This document shows positions 6,193 to 52,129 of a DNA stretch of 64,000 bases, in pieces. The DNA comes from Candidatus Multivoradales bacterium (lineage in GTDB: Bacteria; Acidobacteriota; Thermoanaerobaculia; Multivoradales; J023), in NCBI GenBank assembly GCA_965248925.1, contig CBDFLE010000006.1, forward strand, positions 3,200,001 through 3,264,000. Direction: 5' to 3'. Below the pieces are notes generated by a model. That model saw only the letters and a list, made by a program, of their open reading frames with translations. It was not told where the DNA came from and did no database searches. Both the position numbers and the translations under genes were made by a program. The first letter of the stretch is position 1. The number at the start of each line of letters is the position of its first letter.

Positions 6193-7893
6193 ATGCCGCA
6201 GATCCGTACGCGACCGCTGCCCCTCGCCGTTCTAGCCGTATCTTGTCTTCTCATCGCCGTTAACCCGATGTTGGCTGAGCCGCCGATGCCGATCGAGGAC
6301 GCGCCGCCGCGGGCCGAAGGCGAAGGACCCTGGAGTCAGCTAATTCTGCGCGGCGGCATCTTGGTAGATGGCACTGGCGCACCGCCGCGTGGGCCGGTCG
6401 ATATCGTCATCGAAGGCCATCGCATTGTCCGCATCGAGAGTGTTGGTTACCCAGGGGTGCCGATCGAGGCCGACAAGCGGCCGGAGCTGGGTGAGGGTGG
6501 CCATGAACTCGAAGTTTCGGGGATGTATGTTCTACCCGGTTTTGTCGACATGCACGGTCATATCGGTGGCCACGATCAGGGCACGCCGGCGGAGTACGTT
6601 TTCAAGCTGTGGCTCGGGCACGGCATCACCACCATTCGCGATCCGGCCTGCGGTAGCGGGCTCGATTGGTGTTTGGCGCACAAGCAGAAGAGTGCGGACA
6701 ATGAGATCACCGCGCCCCGGATCGAAGTCTACGTGGTCTTCGGCCAGGGGCTCGACGACCCATTCACCGAGCCCGAGCAGGCGCGCCGCTGGGTACGGCA
6801 GGTCGCCGAACAAGGGGCCGATGGGCTGAAGTTCTTTGGCTATCGGCCCGACATCATGCAAGCGGCGATCGAGGAGGCCACCGCCCGCGGCCTAAGAACC
6901 GCCTGTCACCATGCCCAGTTGGCGGTCACCCGGGTCAATGTGCTCGACACCGCCCGCTGGGGCTTGACCTCGATGGAGCATTGGTATGGCCTGCCCGAGG
7001 CTTTGTTCGACGATCGGGTGATCCAGGACTACCCGGTCGACTACAACTACAACAACGAGCAGCATCGTTTTGGCGCGGCCGGCCGGCTGTGGGCCCAGGC
7101 GGCAGCGCCCGGCAGCGCCCGCTGGGAAGCGGTGATGGACGAGTTGCTAGAACTCGACTTCACCCTCGACCCGACCCTGACCATCTACGAAGCCAGCCGC
7201 GACCTGATGCGCGCCCGCCGCGCCGAATGGCACGAGGAGTACACCCTGCCGTCCTTGTGGGATTTCTACCGCCCGAGCCGTAAAGCGCACGGTTCCTACT
7301 GGTTCGACTGGTCGACCGAAGACGAGGTCGCCTGGCGCGGCAACTTCCGGCGTTGGATGGTGTTTCTCAATGAGTACAAGAACCGTGGCGGCCGAGTCAC
7401 CGCCGGCTCCGACAGCGGTTTTATCTACAAGCTTTACGGCTTCGGCTACATCCGCGAACTCGAACTGCTGCGCGAAGCCGGTTTCCACCCCCTTGAGGTG
7501 CTGCGCTCGGCGACTTACCTCGGCGCCGAGGCGCTTGGCCGGGTCGCCGAGATCGGCTCGGTCGAGCCCGGCAAGCTGGCTGACCTGATCGTCGTGCCCG
7601 AAAATCCGCTGGCCAACTTGAAAGTGCTTTACGGCACCGGCGCGATCCGGGTCGACGAGGACAACCAGCCGGTGCGGGTCGGCGGCGTGCGCTGGACGAT
7701 CAAAGACGGCATCGTCTACGACGCGCCACGGCTGCTCGCCGACGTGCGGAGAATCGTCGCCGAGGCCAAAGAGCGAGAGGGGCGAGAGCTGGTGCAGCCC
7801 GGCATGCCGGGGGATCAGCCGCCGGCCGAGGGGGGCGAGGACCAGCCGCAGGGGGATTCGGCTGCAGCCGCTGAGGGGCTGCCGATCAGCTGA
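6193..7893 (+). CDS. Secreted metal-dependent amidohydrolase
   Basis: PGFVDMHGH metal motif, AGSDSG, GSVEPGKLADL; signal peptide; GGAGG RBS at 6181. Confidence 0.9.
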   Translation: MPQIRTRPLPLAVLAVSCLLIAVNPMLAEPPMPIEDAPPRAEGEGPWSQLILRGGILVDGTGAPPRGPVDIVIEGHRIVRIESVGYPGVPIEADKRPELGEGGHELEVSGMYVLPGFVDMHGHIGGHDQGTPAEYVFKLWLGHGITTIRDPACGSGLDWCLAHKQKSADNEITAPRIEVYVVFGQGLDDPFTEPEQARRWVRQVAEQGADGLKFFGYRPDIMQAAIEEATARGLRTACHHAQLAVTRVNVLDTARWGLTSMEHWYGLPEALFDDRVIQDYPVDYNYNNEQHRFGAAGRLWAQAAAPGSARWEAVMDELLELDFTLDPTLTIYEASRDLMRARRAEWHEEYTLPSLWDFYRPSRKAHGSYWFDWSTEDEVAWRGNFRRWMVFLNEYKNRGGRVTAGSDSGFIYKLYGFGYIRELELLREAGFHPLEVLRSATYLGAEALGRVAEIGSVEPGKLADLIVVPENPLANLKVLYGTGAIRVDEDNQPVRVGGVRWTIKDGIVYDAPRLLADVRRIVAEAKEREGRELVQPGMPGDQPPAEGGEDQPQGDSAAAAEGLPIS

Positions 7894-10024
7894 GGAATAG
7901 GTAGGCGAGGAAGAGCAGGATCACCAGGACCACGGTCGGAGTTCCGAAAGACAGAGCACTTCGCTGCCAGGGCTCTAGCTGCTGCCAACGTTGGCCGAGA
8001 GTTAGCTGAGTCTGCCGGCGATCGCGCCCTATTTCCTGTTGCAGCTGATCCGCCGGGACCTGACTGACGTTGCGTCGCGCTTCAGACTGTGATCCTTCGA
8101 TCATCCTGCGGTGACGCTGGCGGATCTTGCTCACTTGCGGCGGGCTACTAGAGGTCCCGCCGCTGCTTTGGAGTTTTTGTGGCGTGTAGTCGACCCTCAA
8201 AGTTCTCGGCGAGGTAACCTGTTCCAGGGGCTGATCCACCTTCGGAATGAGGTAGGAGAAATGGGCGCCGCTGTGCAGGATGTAGATCTGAAGTCCACCG
8301 CTGCCCAGCTGCAGTGAGCCGATCAAGATGACCTGATCGGTGTTGGGTGGTGCCTGAACGATGTGGACCGTGCAGTTAGTGAAGCCCTGCCTTGCCAGAA
8401 TCGCCAGCGCCCGCTGACCGGAGGGGTGGCTGATATCGATCTGCTCACCGGCGGCAATGCCGATGTCCGCCTGGACGATGGCTTGGCGAAGCTGGCCGAT
8501 GGTCTCGGAGTCTTCCCGGCCGTAAGCCCGTGCCATGCAGCGCAGAAAGCAGTTCATTTGATCGCCGGACACCCGCTCGATGACGAAAGCCTGGCCCACC
8601 TGCTGTACTCCGGGCTGCTCGAGCAGCTTTTCAAAAGCGACCTGCTCGACGAAGTCGGGTTGCTCCCAATCCGGAGACCGCACGAACGGCTGCGGGCCCA
8701 AACTGGGCATCTCGATCTCCATCCACGGGCTCATCAACAGCACCTGTCGATTGCGGTCGACCGGTAGCTCTTTGAGCCGCTCATTGAGCCTGCCCTGGGC
8801 TTGCCCCAGCTCCTGGGTGCCGCTAGGCCAGAAGTCGTAGCCTCCGCCGTCGGCGATCAGCGCCCAGAACTGATAGTGGGTGAGCGTCAGATAGATGCGG
8901 CCCTGGGTGTAGTCGAGCACCACCTTGGTGTTGTGCTCCCAATCTGAACCGGTGCCGGTGTACTCGGCGAAGCCCTCTGGCCCCTGCCGACCCTTGACGA
9001 TTGCCGAACCGGCGCCGGTTTGCGAATGGGTCGCGTAGTGACCGTGCAGCGCCGGTTGCGGGGCGTCTTTGTCGAACTGGTTCTGCGGCAGCCTGCCGGA
9101 AGAGTCTTGGTGCCAGCTGCGCAGCGTGCCGGGCGCGTCGGGGCTCTTCTCTTTCCGCTTCTTCTCGTCTTCGGTTCTCTCGTCGACGACCGCTCCGCTG
9201 TCCAGCTGGAAGCGCACGTCGAACATCAGATTGATCAGCGGGCGAGGCAGAATCTGCTTGGCGACTTCCCACGGCAGGCGGGTGATCGGTAGACTCTCTT
9301 TGTGGTACGCCGGGTCTTCTTGGCCGAGGGCTCCGGCTAGCAGTACCGGGCCGATCGCCTGACCAAGAGACTCGTACATGCTCTCGTCGCTGCCCCACAT
9401 CACGCCTTCTGGCTGGCCGCGATGGGTCAGCGAAGTGTGCTGATACTCGTCACCTTCGAAGACGCTCTTCGGCATGGTGGCGTACCGGGTATCGCGGTTG
9501 GGCTGGGCAGGACCGCCTGGATTCTGATCGGGCTTGAACTTCTTGTATCCTGCTCTGATGCAATGGTTGATGTTGCCAGGCAATTCCGCGAGAAGCCCGA
9601 GCTTCTCCTCTCGAGATTTCTCAGGGAATGAGTTCGCCCTACGGAAATACTTGGCGGCTTTACTGTTGTCGAGTCCTGCGGCGATCTGGATCGCATAGGC
9701 GAGGTCGTCACGGATCGCCAGGTCGAAGTATTCGTCGAGCTGAGCATCATCGAGCTGGTCGAGGGTCAGGCCCAAACCTTGGGCATAGGCTTGCGGGGTG
9801 ATTACGATCAGGCGCTGGACAGTGTTGGCCGGTGCGCGTCGAGGTTCTCCGATCACTCGGTGGCCGAGCAGCTGGGCTCGTTGGATCCTCGCTTCGAGCT
9901 GATCTGGGGAGGGGGTCTCCCGCGAGCCCATCCGCTGATCGATCGTGGACTCGGGTGAGCGAGGTCGCGACCGGAAGTCGGCGTGGACTGGCGGAGGCGA
10001 GAAGGGCTTGTCAACTCGATGCAT
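7886..10024 (-). CDS. Orphan multidomain protein: barnase-like RNase motifs, OTU-like cysteine protease motifs and C-terminal TM anchor
   Basis: 712-aa ORF; HQDSSGRLP...AEYT...IYLTLTHYQF; VSGDQMNCFLRC...ILHSGAHFSYL; terminal hydrophobic helix VVLVILLFLAYLFLS. Confidence 0.6.
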   Translation of the reverse strand: MHRVDKPFSPPPVHADFRSRPRSPESTIDQRMGSRETPSPDQLEARIQRAQLLGHRVIGEPRRAPANTVQRLIVITPQAYAQGLGLTLDQLDDAQLDEYFDLAIRDDLAYAIQIAAGLDNSKAAKYFRRANSFPEKSREEKLGLLAELPGNINHCIRAGYKKFKPDQNPGGPAQPNRDTRYATMPKSVFEGDEYQHTSLTHRGQPEGVMWGSDESMYESLGQAIGPVLLAGALGQEDPAYHKESLPITRLPWEVAKQILPRPLINLMFDVRFQLDSGAVVDERTEDEKKRKEKSPDAPGTLRSWHQDSSGRLPQNQFDKDAPQPALHGHYATHSQTGAGSAIVKGRQGPEGFAEYTGTGSDWEHNTKVVLDYTQGRIYLTLTHYQFWALIADGGGYDFWPSGTQELGQAQGRLNERLKELPVDRNRQVLLMSPWMEIEMPSLGPQPFVRSPDWEQPDFVEQVAFEKLLEQPGVQQVGQAFVIERVSGDQMNCFLRCMARAYGREDSETIGQLRQAIVQADIGIAAGEQIDISHPSGQRALAILARQGFTNCTVHIVQAPPNTDQVILIGSLQLGSGGLQIYILHSGAHFSYLIPKVDQPLEQVTSPRTLRVDYTPQKLQSSGGTSSSPPQVSKIRQRHRRMIEGSQSEARRNVSQVPADQLQQEIGRDRRQTQLTLGQRWQQLEPWQRSALSFGTPTVVLVILLFLAYLFLS

Positions 10025-14333: not shown

Positions 14334-15548
14334 CTAGAGAAAACGTTGCAGATGCTTCAGCACCTGCCGGGCCAGGGGGGACTTGCGATAAACGTAGACC
14401 TCGCCCGGTATCTGATCTAGGTCTTCCTCGCCGCCGGCGAGCTGCTTGGAAATGGCCAGCAGGAGATTCTTTGGGCCATGGCGGCGGAGCAGCTCGAGGC
14501 GGCTTTCGACCGCGCCACGACGCCAATAGCCGAGCACTTCCATCACCACTCGGGTGCCGCTCTCTGCGTGATCGAAGATGAAGTCGGGTACCAGCACCCC
14601 CTCGCCGCCGAGATCGACCAGCTCGCCTTCGGTGGAGACTTGCCAGGGAGTGTCGAGTTCAGCGAAGCGCCGCGGTAGCCAGCTGACCTCTTCCGGCTGC
14701 CATTGGCCGGTGAGCTTGCTGGGTGAACGTAAACCTTTTTTGGCAGACAGTTTGAAAGTGCGTTGCAGTCGCTTCTTACCCCAACGCAGCTCGGCTTCGA
14801 GCTGCCAGTGGTCGAGGTGCAAGAGCGCCGGTAGAAAGCTCGCCATTTGCAAGCCGTAGCGTTGGCTTGACTGGAAAAGTGACAGGGGGCCGTCGAGCAC
14901 CACCACCCAACTACCATTCTGGCCACGTTCGAGACGGTGCATCAGCTGAAAGAATTTGATCTTCTGAAACAACGCTCGATGGCGGCGTGGGTTCTTGCCC
15001 GCTAGCTCGAGTCGCAGGTTGACGGCGCGCAGCAGCACCACCTGGGCGAGGGCGACGTTGTAGCGATCGAGTAGCCATTGCGGGTCACAGCGCTTGAAGC
15101 TGATCAACCGCTGCTGGTCCTTGAGGTCGGCGTAGAGGTGGTCGTCGAGCTCGCCGGCTGGCAGCTCCAAGCTGGCCGCCGCCTGCTCGATGACGGCCTC
15201 GCGGTCGAAGGCGAAAGGCCCATCCTGCACCGGCTCTCGGTAGGCGTTGGCGGCGGCGGTGAAGACCGCGTGGCGCAGCTCGTCGGGCGGCTGCGGGGCG
15301 GTGGTCTCGAAGACACAGCGGTCACGGAGCAGCTTGGCCAGGCCGCGGTGCAGCAGAAAGGCAGTGCCGGTGCCGAGCAGCTCGTCGAGCTCGGCGTCGA
15401 GCTCGGCTTGGGGATGGCCGCAGAAGGCTGCGAACGTCGCGACCAGGGTGTCGGCCAGGGCTAGCAGATCAGCATCGGTTCGCTCGACATAGCGTGGTTT
15501 GACCTCGCCACGGTAGGTCCGCGCCAGCAGTAGGTCGGAGGTCAGCAT
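14334..15548 (-). CDS. DUF790/Bax1-like endonuclease
   Basis: MLTSDLL start; LYADL; RYNVALAQ; DGPLSLF..SQRYG; PDF...EVLGYW nuclease motif. Confidence 0.88.
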   Translation of the reverse strand: MLTSDLLLARTYRGEVKPRYVERTDADLLALADTLVATFAAFCGHPQAELDAELDELLGTGTAFLLHRGLAKLLRDRCVFETTAPQPPDELRHAVFTAAANAYREPVQDGPFAFDREAVIEQAAASLELPAGELDDHLYADLKDQQRLISFKRCDPQWLLDRYNVALAQVVLLRAVNLRLELAGKNPRRHRALFQKIKFFQLMHRLERGQNGSWVVVLDGPLSLFQSSQRYGLQMASFLPALLHLDHWQLEAELRWGKKRLQRTFKLSAKKGLRSPSKLTGQWQPEEVSWLPRRFAELDTPWQVSTEGELVDLGGEGVLVPDFIFDHAESGTRVVMEVLGYWRRGAVESRLELLRRHGPKNLLLAISKQLAGGEEDLDQIPGEVYVYRKSPLARQVLKHLQRFL

Positions 15549-15549
15549 C

Positions 15550-16932
15550 TCAGCTTGTGCTCCGTTGATAGGCATCGTGTTGGCGGCGGCGCTCGCTGGT
15601 GAATTCTTCGGCGGTGTCCTCGGCCACTACCTCGTAGAGCAGTGCTCGCTTGTCCTTGGCGCGGCGCAAAATGCGGCCCAGGCGTTGCACATGCTCACGC
15701 ACCGTGCCGCTGCCCGAGAGCACCACGCCGATGTTGGCGGCTGGTATGTCGACCCCCTCGTTGAGCACTCTTGAGGTGACCAGGAAGGGCAGCTCGCCGG
15801 CATTGAAGGCCGCCAAGGTGGCGTGGCGTTCTTTGATCTTGGTCTGGTGAGTGATCGCCGGGATCAAGAAGCGGCGGGAGATCTTGTAGACCGTGGCGTT
15901 GTCGTTGGTGAAGATCAGCATGCGGTCCTGGCGGTGGCGGCTGATCAGCTTCTCCAGCAGTCGCAACTTGGCGCCCGAGGCCTGGGCGATGGCCCGTTGG
16001 CGGCGGTAGGCGAGGAAGGCACGGCGGCCTTCTTCGCTGCGGGAGGTCGCTTGTAGAAACCGCGCCCAGCCTGACGGTCCGCCGAAACGAATCTGATGCT
16101 GTTCGACGAATCCGCGATAGATCTGCCGTTCCTCGCTGTAGGCCTCGCGCTCTTCGTCCGACAGACGGACCCGCACTCTCTCGGTGTCGTACTCCGCCAG
16201 GTAGCTGCCGGCCAGTTCGCCGATTTCGCGACGGTAGACGATCGGCCCTACCAAGTTGTCGAGCAGCCTTTCGCCGCCGTCTTCGCGCTCCGGAGTGGCG
16301 GTCAGACCGAGGCGGAAGGGGGCGATCGACAGCTCGGCGGCGGTGGCGTAGGTCGGTCCCGGCAGGTGGTGGCATTCGTCGAACACCAACAAGGCGAAGC
16401 GGTCGCCGAGTTTGTCCATGTGCAGGTAGGCCGAGTCGTAGGTGGTGACGGTCAGCGGCCGGGGTTCGAAATAGCCGCCACCGATCAGTCCGACTTCGAC
16501 CTCGAAACCGGTCGACAGCACGCCATACCACTGTTGCATCAGGTCGAGGGTGGGAGTGACCACTAGAGCGCAGCAGCCCAAGCGCTCGATGATCAGCTGG
16601 GCGACGTAGGTCTTGCCGGCGCCGGTGGGCAACACCACCACGCCGCAGCGGCCTTCTTGCCACCAGGCCTCCACCGCCTCTTTCTGGTGTGGGAAAGGGG
16701 TGCGTTCGAGACGCGATGCGAGGGCTTGGTCGCTGTAGGCGCGAGCTGCGTTGTCGTACTCCAAGCCCGAGCGATGGAGCGTTCGCACCACCTCGCGGTA
16801 GCGAAAGGCTGGCGCTCGCCACAATCCCACTCGGGAATCCCAAACGCAGCCCGGCGGTCGCAGCTCCGCGGGCGCTTCACCCGCGGTGGGGCGTAGCACG
16901 AGGGTGCCGCGGTCGAACTCCAAGCGAATCAT
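15550..16932 (-). CDS. XPB/Rad25(SSL2)-like superfamily 2 DNA helicase
   Basis: LPTGAGKT, DECHH, GLTAT, EGVDIP and QRLGRILR motifs. Confidence 0.93.
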   Translation of the reverse strand: MIRLEFDRGTLVLRPTAGEAPAELRPPGCVWDSRVGLWRAPAFRYREVVRTLHRSGLEYDNAARAYSDQALASRLERTPFPHQKEAVEAWWQEGRCGVVVLPTGAGKTYVAQLIIERLGCCALVVTPTLDLMQQWYGVLSTGFEVEVGLIGGGYFEPRPLTVTTYDSAYLHMDKLGDRFALLVFDECHHLPGPTYATAAELSIAPFRLGLTATPEREDGGERLLDNLVGPIVYRREIGELAGSYLAEYDTERVRVRLSDEEREAYSEERQIYRGFVEQHQIRFGGPSGWARFLQATSRSEEGRRAFLAYRRQRAIAQASGAKLRLLEKLISRHRQDRMLIFTNDNATVYKISRRFLIPAITHQTKIKERHATLAAFNAGELPFLVTSRVLNEGVDIPAANIGVVLSGSGTVREHVQRLGRILRRAKDKRALLYEVVAEDTAEEFTSERRRQHDAYQRSTS

Positions 16933-49273: not shown

Positions 49274-52129
49274 CTAGCGGCTCGCGATCCGTTGGAGCAG
49301 CAGGTCGGTGGTCTCGCGCACCATTGGGTCGGGCTCGCCCTCGGCGGCTCGATGGATCAACTCAAACAGCGATTCGTGTTGGCGATCAACAATGAAGTGC
49401 AATGCGGCGGCACTCCACCAGGCGGCGTCGGCGTCGCCCACCGGGCGCTGCCACACCAGGCGTTCCAAGGTCTTGCGCAGCGATTCGGCGCGCAGACTGA
49501 ATTCTCGCTCCGCTCGGCGGTGACGTTCGTGCCGCGGCAGGTCGTCGATCACCGTCAGCACCTGCAGGCGGGCTGCGCCACGCAGCGTATTGTCGAGGTA
49601 CTCCAGGGCATGGCAGCGCAACCTGGGCTGAGCACAGACCAAGGCTTGGTGGGCGGCGCGAATGTCCTTGGGGTCGCCGAGCAGAGCGAGCAGGCCGAAA
49701 AGATTGTCGAAGTGGTCGTTCATGCGGTCGGCGAGGAGTCGTTCGAGCAGATGGGGGCCGGCACTATCAGAGGTTCGCGGCCAGGTCACCACCGGGCCGT
49801 TCAGCGGCAGCTCGCTACCGGAGATCGATTCGAGGTCAAGAAGGCGCCGCAGATAAGAGCGAGCTTCGATCTTGAGTTGCATCTCTAACAACTCGTCGGG
49901 TTGCCCCAGCTCGCCTTTGGGCAGCGCCCCCAGAGCTTCGATCAACTTGCGACGCAGAAATGGATCAGTGGCTGAAAAAGAGCGGCAGAGAGTGTCTGCC
50001 GCCGCCGCGCCGCCGATCTGTGCCACCGTCTTGGGTAGTGCCCGGCGTACCCAAATCTCCTCGTGGCTGTCGTTGAGGAAGTGCTCCAACGCCGGCAGGA
50101 TGGTCGGGCCGTAGGCTACCAGGGCGGCGCGCGAACTGTGTTTTAGCTGCCGCTGGTGCAGATGGGAGGTCAGGATCGGCACGTAGAGGGGATTGCGGGC
50201 GCCCCGCTCGACGCGCTTCGAAACGGCGTCGATAGCAGCCAGCACCACTGTCGGTTCGGCGTCATAGAGAAGTTGCACCAAGCCGGCTTGGACATGTGGA
50301 TCGTCGAGGCTACCCAGGGCGTCGGCTGCCGCCTGGCGGATTCCACTGTTGCCGTCGCCGAGCATCTCGCGGAGGGCTGAATCGGCCAGTTGGCGGCTCA
50401 GCGGATCGGGCTGGCTGGCCAGATAGGCGAGGGCCGCGGCGCGCACTCGTACGTCGCCATCGCGCAGCCGCTCCCGCATCAGGGCGCGAGCATCTTCGGC
50501 GGCCAGGTCGGCGAGGACTTGAGTGGCGGTGGCGCGCACCGTCGGGTCGCCGTCGCCCAGCAGACGTTCGATCAGTGGCAGAGCGTCGCGGCGCTCGGCA
50601 TCGCGTAGCACTAGTAGGGTTCGGCGGCGCACCGCGGGGTCTGGATGGTGCAGCATCAGTGGGGTGACCAACTGGCCGCGACCGTGCGCGGCGAGCAGTT
50701 CCAGGCTGTGCAGCACGCGGCGCGACTCGCTGCTGCCAAGGCCCTCGACCAGCACTTCAAGGGTTGCGGAGTCGGTCAGGTCAAGGTCGGCCGGCCGAGT
50801 TTTGGGAGCTGTTGGCAGGCCCTCGCGAAACAGTTGAACGTAGCGCCGCCGCAGGGGCCCTAGTAGCGCCAACCAAGCAGCGATCCACAGCAGGCTGAGC
50901 CAGGCGGTAGCTTCGATCGACAACCAACCGAAGGTGACAGCGAGCAGTGCGACGGCGGCCGCGCCCTTGGCGAATCGTTGCACAAAGACGTCGATGAACG
51001 CCTTGGCCCGAGCGCGGCCGGCCTCCGGGAGGGGCATGAAGAGCAGCTCTCGGGTTGCTTGATCGAGGGAGTAGCGCAGGCCGTTCTCGGAGATCTTCAG
51101 CCACCACACCGCGGGTAGGACCAGGGTAGGAGCCACCAGCGCGGCGCAGATCAAGAAGATAGTGCCAAGGCCGTTGGATAAAGGCAGAACATAGAGTGCC
51201 AGGCGAACTCCGTGCCGGCGATGCATCAGCCCGGTCAGCAGCAGTTGGCAGAGCAGGGCGGCAATTCCGGTCAGGCTGTAAAGGTTGCCGAAGGCCGCGG
51301 TGCGCTGGTCGAGGTTGCTGGTGCTGGTCTCGATCACCCAGGAGAGTTGTAGATCGATCACCTGTGCGACCATTGTCGCCAGCAGCACCAATCCGGCGAG
51401 TAGCCGCAGATAGGAGGAGTGGCGCAGCAAAGCAAGGCCGCTGCGGGCCTCGGCGAGGCTGTCGCTAGAGGGTTGCGCTGGCGGCGTGGTGGGGCGCTTC
51501 TCGGGCTGGCGAATAGACCAGGCGCACGCCGCCGCGGCCAACAACCAAGCGATGGCGACCCAGAGGGCCGAACGGGTGTCGAGCAGGGCACTGGTCCAGC
51601 GTGCCATTTGACCGCCGACGATGCCGCCCAGAATGCCCCCAGCACCAATTGCCCCGAACAGCCTCCGTGCCTGTCGCGGGTCGAGCAGCAGACCGGCCCA
51701 GCACCACAGCTGGCTGACCAGCAACAGGCCGACGATGGCGATCCACAGGTAGAAAAGCAAGCTAGGCCACTGGCTGTCGAGTCCCAGCGCCCACCAGAAG
51801 AAGACCAGACCGGCGGCCACTCCCAGGCTCGAACCGAGCAGCAGCCGGCGCGGGCCGAAGCTCTCTGGTGAACGTGTGTAGAGTCGTAACAGGGGATAGG
51901 AGCACAGCGCCGCCAAGAGATAGACCCAGGGCAACTGGGCCGCTCCCAGGGAGTCGACAAAAGTAGCTTGACGGACCGACTTGGCGACGTATTGGAAGCT
52001 CAACAAGCAGAAGTGGAGAGCGAAGAGGCGCCACAGCAGACGCCGCTCGTCAGTGCGAACGTCGAGCTTTAGCCAGCCGAGCCAGCCGCTTGATGGATGG
52101 CTGTGGGGCGATGGTTTGGGTGGAGGCAT
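49274..52129 (-). CDS. Npt1/Npt2 (TLC) nucleotide transporter-like MFS domain fused to HEAT repeats
   Basis: About 12 TMs with AKSVRQATF, PRQARRLFG, RYSLDQATRELLF, RAKAFIDVFVQR; then D..VR..A HEAT repeats. Confidence 0.85.
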   Translation of the reverse strand: MPPPKPSPHSHPSSGWLGWLKLDVRTDERRLLWRLFALHFCLLSFQYVAKSVRQATFVDSLGAAQLPWVYLLAALCSYPLLRLYTRSPESFGPRRLLLGSSLGVAAGLVFFWWALGLDSQWPSLLFYLWIAIVGLLLVSQLWCWAGLLLDPRQARRLFGAIGAGGILGGIVGGQMARWTSALLDTRSALWVAIAWLLAAAACAWSIRQPEKRPTTPPAQPSSDSLAEARSGLALLRHSSYLRLLAGLVLLATMVAQVIDLQLSWVIETSTSNLDQRTAAFGNLYSLTGIAALLCQLLLTGLMHRRHGVRLALYVLPLSNGLGTIFLICAALVAPTLVLPAVWWLKISENGLRYSLDQATRELLFMPLPEAGRARAKAFIDVFVQRFAKGAAAVALLAVTFGWLSIEATAWLSLLWIAAWLALLGPLRRRYVQLFREGLPTAPKTRPADLDLTDSATLEVLVEGLGSSESRRVLHSLELLAAHGRGQLVTPLMLHHPDPAVRRRTLLVLRDAERRDALPLIERLLGDGDPTVRATATQVLADLAAEDARALMRERLRDGDVRVRAAALAYLASQPDPLSRQLADSALREMLGDGNSGIRQAAADALGSLDDPHVQAGLVQLLYDAEPTVVLAAIDAVSKRVERGARNPLYVPILTSHLHQRQLKHSSRAALVAYGPTILPALEHFLNDSHEEIWVRRALPKTVAQIGGAAAADTLCRSFSATDPFLRRKLIEALGALPKGELGQPDELLEMQLKIEARSYLRRLLDLESISGSELPLNGPVVTWPRTSDSAGPHLLERLLADRMNDHFDNLFGLLALLGDPKDIRAAHQALVCAQPRLRCHALEYLDNTLRGAARLQVLTVIDDLPRHERHRRAEREFSLRAESLRKTLERLVWQRPVGDADAAWWSAAALHFIVDRQHESLFELIHRAAEGEPDPMVRETTDLLLQRIASR

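Follow-up and report, generated by a model that had tools for sequence, protein, structure and literature searches.

How would a protein that appears to join a ribonuclease, a protease and a membrane anchor reach a target, and what would each part do there? The question is raised by an open reading frame (ORF) on the minus strand of a 64,000-nucleotide stretch of DNA from Candidatus Multivoradales bacterium (contig CBDFLE010000006.1, positions 3,200,001 to 3,264,000); this whole stretch is hereafter called the window. An earlier note, made from the letters alone, had described the product of the ORF, designated here as P0001, as an orphan effector-like protein with a barnase-type RNase, an OTU-like protease and a tail anchor, in an architecture that was not recognised. 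The present analysis favours, with a probability of about 0.6, the view that P0001 is a toxin carried as off-locus cargo by the Afp/PVC-like contractile injection system (CIS) encoded on another contig of the same genome. Taken on its own, the status of CIS cargo is slightly favoured, because the family of the RNase-like module is linked to CIS genes, the genome possesses a CIS and a leader motif is shared with proteins of the CIS locus.

Layout of the protein and the CIS-linked family of its module

The features of P0001 are given below in window coordinates, with the residue numbers of the protein and the basis of each assignment.

7886..10024, minus strand: whole ORF of P0001, 712 amino acids plus stop.
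9857..10024, minus strand: N-terminal leader, residues 1–56, Arg/Pro/Ser-rich, without a hydrophobic segment; proposed CIS loading sequence (composition, hydropathy).
9854..9886, minus strand: leader motif IQRAQLLGHRV, residues 47–57 (regular expression); relatives elsewhere have LQRxxGNxAV at the same place.
9293..9856, minus strand: helical subdomain of the conserved module, residues 57–244, with the motifs QRxIVITPxAYAxGLG, RYAT and WGxDxxM (AlphaFold2 model, per-residue confidence (pLDDT) mostly >90; conserved in the closest relatives).
8702..9292, minus strand: predicted RNase Sa/barnase-fold core, residues 245–441 (structural alignment, conservation, hhalign).
8240..8647, minus strand: predicted OTU-fold cysteine peptidase domain, residues 460–595, with Cys492 in SGDQMNCF and His588 in LHSGAHF (AlphaFold2, Foldseek, conservation).
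7961..8239, minus strand: Gln/Arg/Ser-rich linker, residues 596–688 (composition).
7889..7960, minus strand: predicted C-terminal transmembrane helix (tail anchor), residues 689–712 (Kyte–Doolittle).

The frame and the motifs quoted in the earlier note were confirmed, each motif lying inside the range first reported for it. HQDSSGRLP occupies residues 305–313 (nt 9086–9112), FAEYT residues 352–356 and IYLTLTHYQF residues 377–386 (nt 8867–8896); in the OTU region, VSGDQMNCFLRC corresponds to residues 485–496 (nt 8537–8572) and IYILHSGAHFSYL to residues 580–592 (nt 8249–8287). The leader contains 16% Arg, 14% Pro and 11% Ser. The maximum Kyte–Doolittle 19-residue mean in the N-terminal 56 residues is −0.36, so no hydrophobic stretch is present, in agreement with the lack of a Sec signal noted before. 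The last 19–20 residues form the most hydrophobic window of the protein, with a mean of 2.39 (residues 693–711), and the second-best window (1.56) is located inside a beta strand of the OTU domain. A single membrane helix thus very likely lies at the C-terminal end, as had been proposed, and with no N-terminal signal it makes up a tail-anchored layout. The Pfam search of P0001 returned nothing but a sub-threshold match of the DotU C-terminal family over this helix (E 0.31), and NCBIfam, PDB sequences and PADLOC gave no match. No notable sigma-70-like promoter or terminator was seen around the gene.

In a word-indexed search, 34 relatives of P0001 were found at E-values of 1e-98 to 1e-55, all confined to residues 57–441 and covering at most 59% of the query. 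The ORF is a real coding sequence, beyond chance, because its product has relatives of this strength and a fold predicted with high confidence. An exhaustive HMMER search of 1.84 billion representatives gave 114 non-self matches at E ≤ 1e-3 and 44 at E ≤ 1e-30. The relatives form two layers: the closest carry the whole 385-residue module, and about 60 remoter clusters carry only its core, roughly residues 245–392. Rarity in P0001 is limited to the last 270 residues, and residues 57–441 belong to a family of over 100 clusters for which no Pfam family exists. The designation of the protein as an orphan does not stand, given these 114 matches and the usual fusion of the module to the eCIS_core domain (DUF4157). 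P0001 itself is single-copy in its genome; used as a query against 40 related genomes, 23 from the same family and 17 from the same order, it gave no match, which fits a laterally moving toxin gene.

An N-terminal eCIS_core domain (PF13699) was present in 21 of the 34 closest relatives and scored above the Pfam cut-off in 13 of the 26 further relatives scanned. Such proteins carry the module as their C-terminal domain and stop right after the conserved MSPWMEI. A scan of one genome per species with a 15-sequence alignment provided 35 loci, in 13 of which ORFs were called; Pfam was run on 8. Streptomyces contributed 15 loci, Actinoplanes 5, Kitasatospora 3 and other lineages 12, the latter including Cyanobacteriota, Kofleriaceae, Nannocystis, Pyrinomonadales, Gemmatimonadaceae, Flavobacterium and Rheinheimera. 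The module gene lies beside CIS genes or eCIS_core arrays in three of the eight loci examined. In Actinoplanes (locus L015) it adjoins, and diverges from, a sheath gene and a gp19 tube gene, with an AAA ATPase gene near. In Flavobacterium (L036) and Rheinheimera (L035), eCIS_core proteins are encoded in a row downstream of an AAA ATPase; the module gene is part of this row, among other toxin-type genes (GH25, GH-E, HNH). The remaining five loci showed no CIS genes within the DNA stretch examined, and none of the eight had a small conserved downstream gene fit for an immunity protein.

In a Pyrinomonadales metagenome-assembled genome, the gene directly upstream of the module gene (L028:3976-4614, plus strand) encodes a 212-aa PG_binding_1 protein. 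The same domain occurs in a leader-bearing 691-aa protein of the P0001 genome, described below.

The injection system of the genome and the leader motif

The genome, 96.9% complete, amounts to 8.0 Mb in 6 contigs. The earlier note had proposed a search for injection machinery, and such machinery was found: a full Afp/PVC-like CIS locus is located on contig C5, at about 2.052–2.087 Mb, and TssC (PF05943), the canonical sheath protein of type VI secretion (T6SS), was not found in the genome. The locus encodes a sheath protein of 1012 aa with a Phage_sheath_1C domain, along with gp19 tube, T4_baseplate, Pvc16_N, AAA+ with WHD, Phage_base_V, gp25, DUF6519, Kelch and eCIS_core proteins. Directly beside the eCIS_core gene, on the minus strand at C5 ~2,086,800–2,094,900 (L044:6802-14884), genes for an IcmF-related_N protein (1505 aa), a DotU protein (240 aa) and a TIG-domain protein (771 aa) were observed. 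With T6SS-type membrane-complex parts beside an eCIS-type machine and no TssC in the genome, this CIS may be membrane-anchored.

A tblastn search of the genome with leader residues 1–70 gave 29 non-self matches at E up to 10. The two best (E 0.21 and 0.24) are a 691-aa ORF at C6:4261799-4263874 and a 214-aa ORF that lies 2.5 kb from the eCIS_core gene, within the CIS locus. An ungapped motif is common to P0001 and these two ORFs, and the eCIS_core protein of the locus has a similar one:

P0001: IQRAQLLGHRV
691-aa ORF: IQRAELLGHRW
214-aa ORF in the CIS locus: LQRVRLLGHRI
eCIS_core protein of the CIS locus: LARAKVLGHRL

A strict regular expression matched three sites in the six-frame genome versus none in the reversed genome, two of the three being inside the CIS locus. 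A looser expression matched five sites versus none, adding a 421-aa ORF on C5 (RRATALGYRI). All five sites lie within the first 50–150 residues of long ORFs, after Arg/Pro/Ser-rich stretches. The weight of the leader link is in position: two motif sites fall in a locus of ~35 kb out of an 8-Mb genome. Among 142 proteins collected for the analysis, 22 contain LQRxxGNxA. The leader, taken to be disordered from its composition alone, is proposed as a loading sequence because this is the architecture of proven CIS cargo (10.64898/2026.05.27.728243). According to that preprint, cited here, like the other publications below, from the part of its text that was available, a disordered N-terminal domain is required for loading into AlgoCIS and DUF4157 is dispensable; leaders are alike within a system, not between systems.

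Several observations weigh against the attribution of P0001 to this CIS. The P0001 gene is on contig C6 and the CIS locus on C5. The neighbours of the gene are ordinary chromosomal ones (a two-component system, a convergent amidohydrolase, a divergent ArsR/AHSA1/YjbR set and a TetR gene), and neither P0001 nor its neighbours contain eCIS_core. The tblastn matches of the leader are weak, and both regular expressions were composed after the matches were known. The local-alignment score of the leader, 61, is close to the 59, 58 and 57 reached by unrelated Arg/Pro-rich ORFs, and the match to the eCIS_core protein was equalled by 108 of 2000 shuffles. In addition, a membrane helix is unusual in a protein passing through a tube.

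The absence of a barstar-like gene beside P0001, reported before, extends to the whole genome: barstar (PF01337) was found neither among the adjacent genes, which include the amidohydrolase and the ArsR/AHSA1/YjbR set, nor elsewhere in the assembly.

The 691-aa ORF (plus strand; L057:6799-8874) has a Pro-rich N-terminus with the leader motif (RRIQRAELLGHRW), a PG_binding_1 domain at residues 270–322 and a C-terminal HEYTH metallopeptidase-like motif (HExxH). It is possibly a second off-locus CIS cargo, aimed at bacterial cell walls. The 421-aa ORF (C5:1174933-1176195, minus strand; L059) has an Arg/Ser/Pro-rich N-terminus with RRATALGYRI followed by ATIQR and no Pfam match, and is a candidate third member of the leader class. 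A pentapeptide-repeat protein beside the eCIS_core gene resembled the leader by eye; it was rejected as a chance look-alike, since 542 of 2000 shuffles reach its score.

A different, 28-residue stretch with 43% identity to leader residues 3–30 (E 0.3–1.0) occurs at 12 genome sites, spaced ~7.5–12 kb: C5:924175, 932029, 941534, 953767, 961328, 968921 and 976463; C6:3501194, 3509062, 3516777 and 3627269; and C4:73306. From its recurrence, these regions hold a repeated gene or element. At C6:3636931-3645037 (L047:931-9037), RHS-repeat ORFs of 1678 aa (L047:931-5967) and 278 aa (L047:7013-7849) are followed by a 384-aa ORF (L047:7883-9037) with an end resembling the RHS core and, at the toxin position, a weak match (25.5 bits) to eCIS_core. 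This arrangement recalls the RHS plus PVC-metallopeptidase toxins of Zhang 2012 (PMC3482391).

Folds and conserved residues of the two enzyme-like domains

The structural check suggested in the earlier note was carried out with AlphaFold2, Foldseek and structural alignment. The model of residues 57–445, built from an 84-sequence alignment, has a pLDDT of 91.5 and a predicted template modelling score (pTM) of 0.92. With the whole 389-residue module as a query, Foldseek gave nothing at E ≤ 1e-3 and placed RNase Sa2, barnase, RNase Sa and Sa3 at E 0.6–2.5, and the assignment to the barnase fold needed a structural alignment independent of Foldseek. In that alignment RNase Sa (1ay7_A) ranks first of 48,161 chains, with Z 7.3, a root-mean-square deviation (rmsd) of 3.0 and 94 of 96 residues aligned, spanning model residues 189–385, which are residues 245–441 of the protein. 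Realignment of Foldseek's 1000 best chains gave RNase Sa2 (3d4a_B) a Z of 8.0, with rmsd 2.9 over 95 of 95 residues. The first 22 rows are all RNase Sa2, Sa3, Sa or barnase, and the next, an unrelated fold, follows at Z 4.0. The match to RNase Sa covers the whole domain and is well separated from other folds. The helical subdomain (57–244) had generic helix-bundle matches only, at Z about 5.

Over the 84 sequences, Glu354, Gly351, Thr356 and Tyr372 are invariant, and His383, Tyr384, Arg302, Ser303, His305, Leu312, Pro313, Asp281 and Arg283 are conserved in at least 90%. The earlier proposal of a barnase-type fold that keeps the catalytic Glu and His positions is borne out in this respect, with Glu354 and His383 at these places. 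For comparison with the known family, nine genuine PF00545 domains were taken from five of the relatives' genomes. The hhalign comparison of the family profile with these domains gave a single local alignment, which pairs AEYT with HEYT and THYQ with DHY, and Lys367, a basic residue ahead of a hydrophobic strand, with the second of the two phosphate-binding Arg residues that RNase Sa has between Glu and His. The order of motifs known from RNase Sa, Sa2, Sa3 and barnase (PF00545; Tox-Barnase) is kept, namely xxLP, (A/H)EYT with Glu, a basic residue before a hydrophobic strand and (T/D)HY with His, and the fold is shared over the whole RNase chain. The P0001 core differs in the 190-residue helical subdomain in front and in ~40 extra residues between the LP motif and Glu. 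It also has QDSSGRLP (family consensus WHxDxxGxLP) where N-x-E-x-x-LP is invariant in PF00545 domains, a Lys aligned with the second Arg and no barstar partner that could be found.

The identification as an RNase is tempered by a number of results. Z-scores of 7–8 are graded as middling by the aligner itself. The hhalign support for the pairing with RNase Sa is only E 0.077 with a probability of 0.73%, and the first catalytic Arg aligns with Glu363, in a loop whose alignment is unreliable at such similarity. P0001 lacks the guanine-binding N-R-E loop of RNase Sa and has Q-D-S-S-G instead. No PDB RNase was matched by sequence with P0001 or with the family profile (the 84-member profile gave chance hits only), so that the assignment stands on fold and motifs. 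PF00545 did not match P0001 at E up to 10 and was missing among the best 25 of the 43 Pfam families matched by the 84 members (E up to 1); the genome of P0001 has no PF00545 protein either. Judging by the model, the core of the module very probably has the barnase fold and is a separate, very divergent family of this fold, outside PF00545. That the module is an active RNase appears probable, to a lesser degree. Look-alikes proposed by a protein language model (PF00545 clusters at 0.86–0.87 and an OTU cluster at 0.88, all <0.9) were treated as leads, not evidence.

The region that follows the module is much rarer. In the exhaustive search, only four other clusters share residues 459–601. The C-terminal 272 residues taken as a stand-alone protein had no relatives, and residues 445–620 searched among proteins of similar length matched nothing beyond P0001 itself; neither search found a homologue of the linker 596–688. 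Foldseek gave 19 matches of the modelled OTU region at E ≤ 1e-3 (best E 1e-4). Those listed are all OTU domains and include nairovirus vOTUs and a Wolbachia OTU; OTUD5 came next at E 1.4e-3. Structural realignment placed OTUD1 at Z 9.1 (123 residues, rmsd 4.0), with 143 chains at Z ≥ 5. Cys492 (MNC) and His588 (GAHF) are invariant in all five sequences, which agrees with the earlier claim of an OTU-like domain with Cys and His retained. The fold of the peptidases OTUD1, OTUD5/DUBA, nairovirus vOTU and Wolbachia OTU (PF02338; Tox-PLOTU) is the same. As in OTU peptidases, where the Cys motif is GNC, the Cys of P0001 is at a helix start after a small-residue/Asn motif, and an aromatic residue comes after the His in the C-terminal strand. 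At E 0.13, the Cys motif can be aligned with GGGDCLFHS of the relative P0005. PF02338 did not match P0001, and only P0010 reached it, below threshold (E 0.038).

This part of the prediction is less secure. The OTU-region model was built from a 5-sequence alignment and has a pLDDT of 77.6 and a pTM of 0.72, with low pLDDT at positions 167–175 of the model, which carries the OTU domain and part of the linker. Two residues past His588, where an acidic third residue is usual and many OTUs have Asp or Asn, P0001 has Ser590 (Thr in P0137); Asp530 and His584 are other invariant candidates for the third residue. The subfamily is also small and follows a toxin domain, unlike stand-alone OTU peptidases. 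On these models an OTU fold is very probable, and an active peptidase is likely.

A toxin-type domain always precedes the OTU subfamily with MNC and GAHF: a second, shorter copy of the barnase-like core in P0089 (E 6e-7 and E 1e-23 over the two regions in common with P0001), Ntox15 in P0130 and P0137, and a weak deaminase match in P0108. The close module relatives P0005, P0010 and P0027 have more ordinary OTU-like motifs after the module; P0010 combines eCIS_core, the module and a weak OTU match, and P0005 also has a DnaJ domain. The architecture is thus less isolated than the earlier note held: the N-terminal two thirds of P0001 are a widespread CIS cargo module, and its combination with an OTU domain recurs in P0005, P0010, P0027 and P0089. 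A metagenomic protein of 2231 aa, P0110, contains a USP-type deubiquitinase domain (PF00443, E 7e-26, residues 787–1057) and the barnase-like core (residues 1349–1486). It represents a second kind of pairing of a deubiquitinase with an RNase-like domain.

Possible action, alternative readings and known systems

As off-locus CIS cargo, P0001 would act in several steps. The Arg/Pro/Ser-rich leader ending in IQRAQLLGHRV would be recognised by the CIS loading machinery, including a Pvc15-like AAA+ protein, and P0001 would enter the tube. Once injected, the module of 385 residues, in which a helical subdomain packs against the predicted RNase Sa/barnase-fold core, would act as a ribonuclease with Glu354 as the general base and His383 as the general acid. 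The predicted Cys492/His588 peptidase may free the toxin from its anchor, or may attack ubiquitin-like or other proteins in the target. The C-terminal helix would set the protein on a membrane. As to the target, the peptidoglycan-binding domain and HExxH of the 691-aa protein hint at bacteria, and the fusions with USP and OTU domains hint at eukaryotes.

The alternative that fares best is a dual-activity effector against a eukaryotic host, whose RNase would damage host RNA, whose OTU domain would remove ubiquitin or a ubiquitin-like modifier and whose anchor would insert in a host membrane. It departs from the cargo-toxin reading only in fixing the target and the role of the OTU domain, and delivery by the CIS remains compatible with it. 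The structural neighbours point in this direction, the Foldseek matches at E ≤ 1e-3 being all deubiquitinases or deISGylases and the realigned rows all OTU-family chains, as do the USP-type domain in P0110 and the DnaJ domain in P0005. The lack of an immunity gene by P0001 and by the relatives examined, and of barstar in the genome, is also in line with it: Zhang 2012 (PMC3482391) argues that PVC toxins lacking an immunity gene target distant organisms and that endosymbiont OTUs act as deubiquitinases. However, the same OTU subfamily follows Ntox15 and a deaminase match as well, which fits a general processing role, the same-leader 691-aa protein points to bacterial targets for the leader class, and many module relatives occur in Streptomyces. 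A eukaryotic host is a real possibility that falls short of even odds.

The OTU domain could instead process its own chain. In such a pro-toxin it would cut in the Pro-rich segment 442–459 or in the linker 596–688 and release the RNase from the anchored tail. This release would take place in the target or, before loading, in the producer. In the part of Zhang 2012 (PMC3482391) available, Tox-PLOTU domains are mostly releasing peptidases of polymorphic toxins, and the fact that a toxin-type domain always comes before the OTU subfamily (in P0001 and P0089 the barnase-like core, in P0130 and P0137 Ntox15, in P0108 the deaminase match) fits this role. Most relatives end exactly at the C-terminus of the module, and therefore the module works without what follows. 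Yet the releasing peptidase of classical polymorphic toxins is N-terminal to the toxin and that of P0001 C-terminal, a cleavage site is not predictable from the sequence, and the anchor is absent from all relatives of the OTU subfamily. Self-processing must be regarded as rather unlikely.

With a tail anchor and no signal peptide, most of the protein comes to lie in the producer's cytoplasm, and P0001 might not be injected at all: it could be an RNase of regulated cell death or stress, kept inactive at the inner membrane until the OTU domain frees it. The absence of an immunity gene and the distance from the CIS locus would suit such a role. It is improbable, as no PADLOC defence family matched, the links of the family are with eCIS_core and CIS loci and not with defence islands, and the leader motif is common with CIS-locus proteins. 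Least probable is a decayed fusion in which the folds persist and one or both enzymes are dead, as the lost guanine-recognition loop and first Arg of RNase Sa and the Ser in place of the OTU third residue could suggest, given a frame intact across 712 codons, the conservation of Glu354 (invariant), His383, Tyr384, Arg302 and His305 (≥90%) over 84 diverse sequences and of Cys492 and His588 in all five.

A bolder version of the cargo-toxin reading treats RAxLLG(H/Y)R as a system-specific CIS address label and P0001 as a tail-anchored pro-toxin whose OTU domain cuts the barnase-type RNase off its own anchor after delivery. This is speculative and on balance unlikely. If the address label were true, the whole scattered cargo set would be readable from the genome alone: P0001, the 691-aa protein with its PG-binding domain and HExxH, the 421-aa protein and the two locus-encoded proteins.

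Much of the cargo-toxin reading of P0001 has precedents, quoted here from the available portions of the publications. CIS cargo has been described with an N-terminal DUF4157, a C-terminal toxin domain and often no immunity gene (Geller 2021, PMC8213781), and the same layout was reported for 'PVC' toxins (Zhang 2012, PMC3482391). Among the toxins listed in the latter work are already barnase-type ones that combine PVC delivery with the PVC-metallopeptidase (DUF4157), and Tox-PLOTU domains that are sometimes toxins themselves; barnase-type and OTU-type domains in PVC/eCIS-delivered toxins are thus known kinds. About half of the predicted toxins of extracellular CIS (eCIS) carry DUF4157, and 983 of the 1130 DUF4157-bearing ones have no other annotated domain (Danov 2024, PMC11297309). 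With such eCIS-associated toxins (Geller 2021, PMC8213781; AlgoCIS Cgo1/Cgo2, 10.64898/2026.05.27.728243) P0001 shares a leader judged as disordered, a variable C-terminal effector and the lack of an immunity gene, and its relatives, which carry DUF4157, are encoded at the 3′ end of CIS operons. Unlike them, P0001 lost or never had DUF4157, its gene is away from the CIS locus, and it has two enzyme-like domains and a membrane anchor. Tme of Streptomyces davawensis (PMC11126660) is likewise a CIS-associated DUF4157 effector with predicted transmembrane helices and a nuclease domain. According to the portion of the source available, it is a tape-measure-related DNA endonuclease of >2000 aa, and no sequence relation to P0001 was seen.

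The RNase-like module was not found described in the available literature on DUF4157/eCIS, OTU polymorphic toxins and CIS barnases, the toxin lists in the supplements to Geller 2021, Danov 2024 and Zhang 2012 excepted; Ntox5 of Zhang (Streptomyces, PVC-delivered, alpha+beta) could be this module. What is new is that a widespread module, linked to DUF4157 and so far unannotated, is assigned to the barnase fold with named candidate catalytic residues; new as well are the architecture of module, OTU domain and anchor, and a leader motif tying scattered genes to one CIS. The shared leader motif could be a cheap route to off-locus CIS cargo and a candidate loading tag for engineering particles. The module is one blind spot among the eCIS toxins without an annotated domain, and can now be considered a candidate RNase Sa/barnase-fold nuclease. 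The combination of a nuclease, an OTU peptidase and a membrane anchor was not found described for CIS cargo in the portions of the literature searched.

Two further observations concern other genes of the window. At 14334-16932 on the minus strand, a DUF790 protein gene adjoins a gene for an XPB/ERCC3-type helicase with an XPB damage-recognition domain, a pair which we take to resemble the Bax1–XPB pair of archaea and some bacteria. At 49274-52129, also on the minus strand, a 951-aa protein is encoded that combines an MFS / TLC ATP-ADP-transporter-like membrane domain with HEAT repeats.

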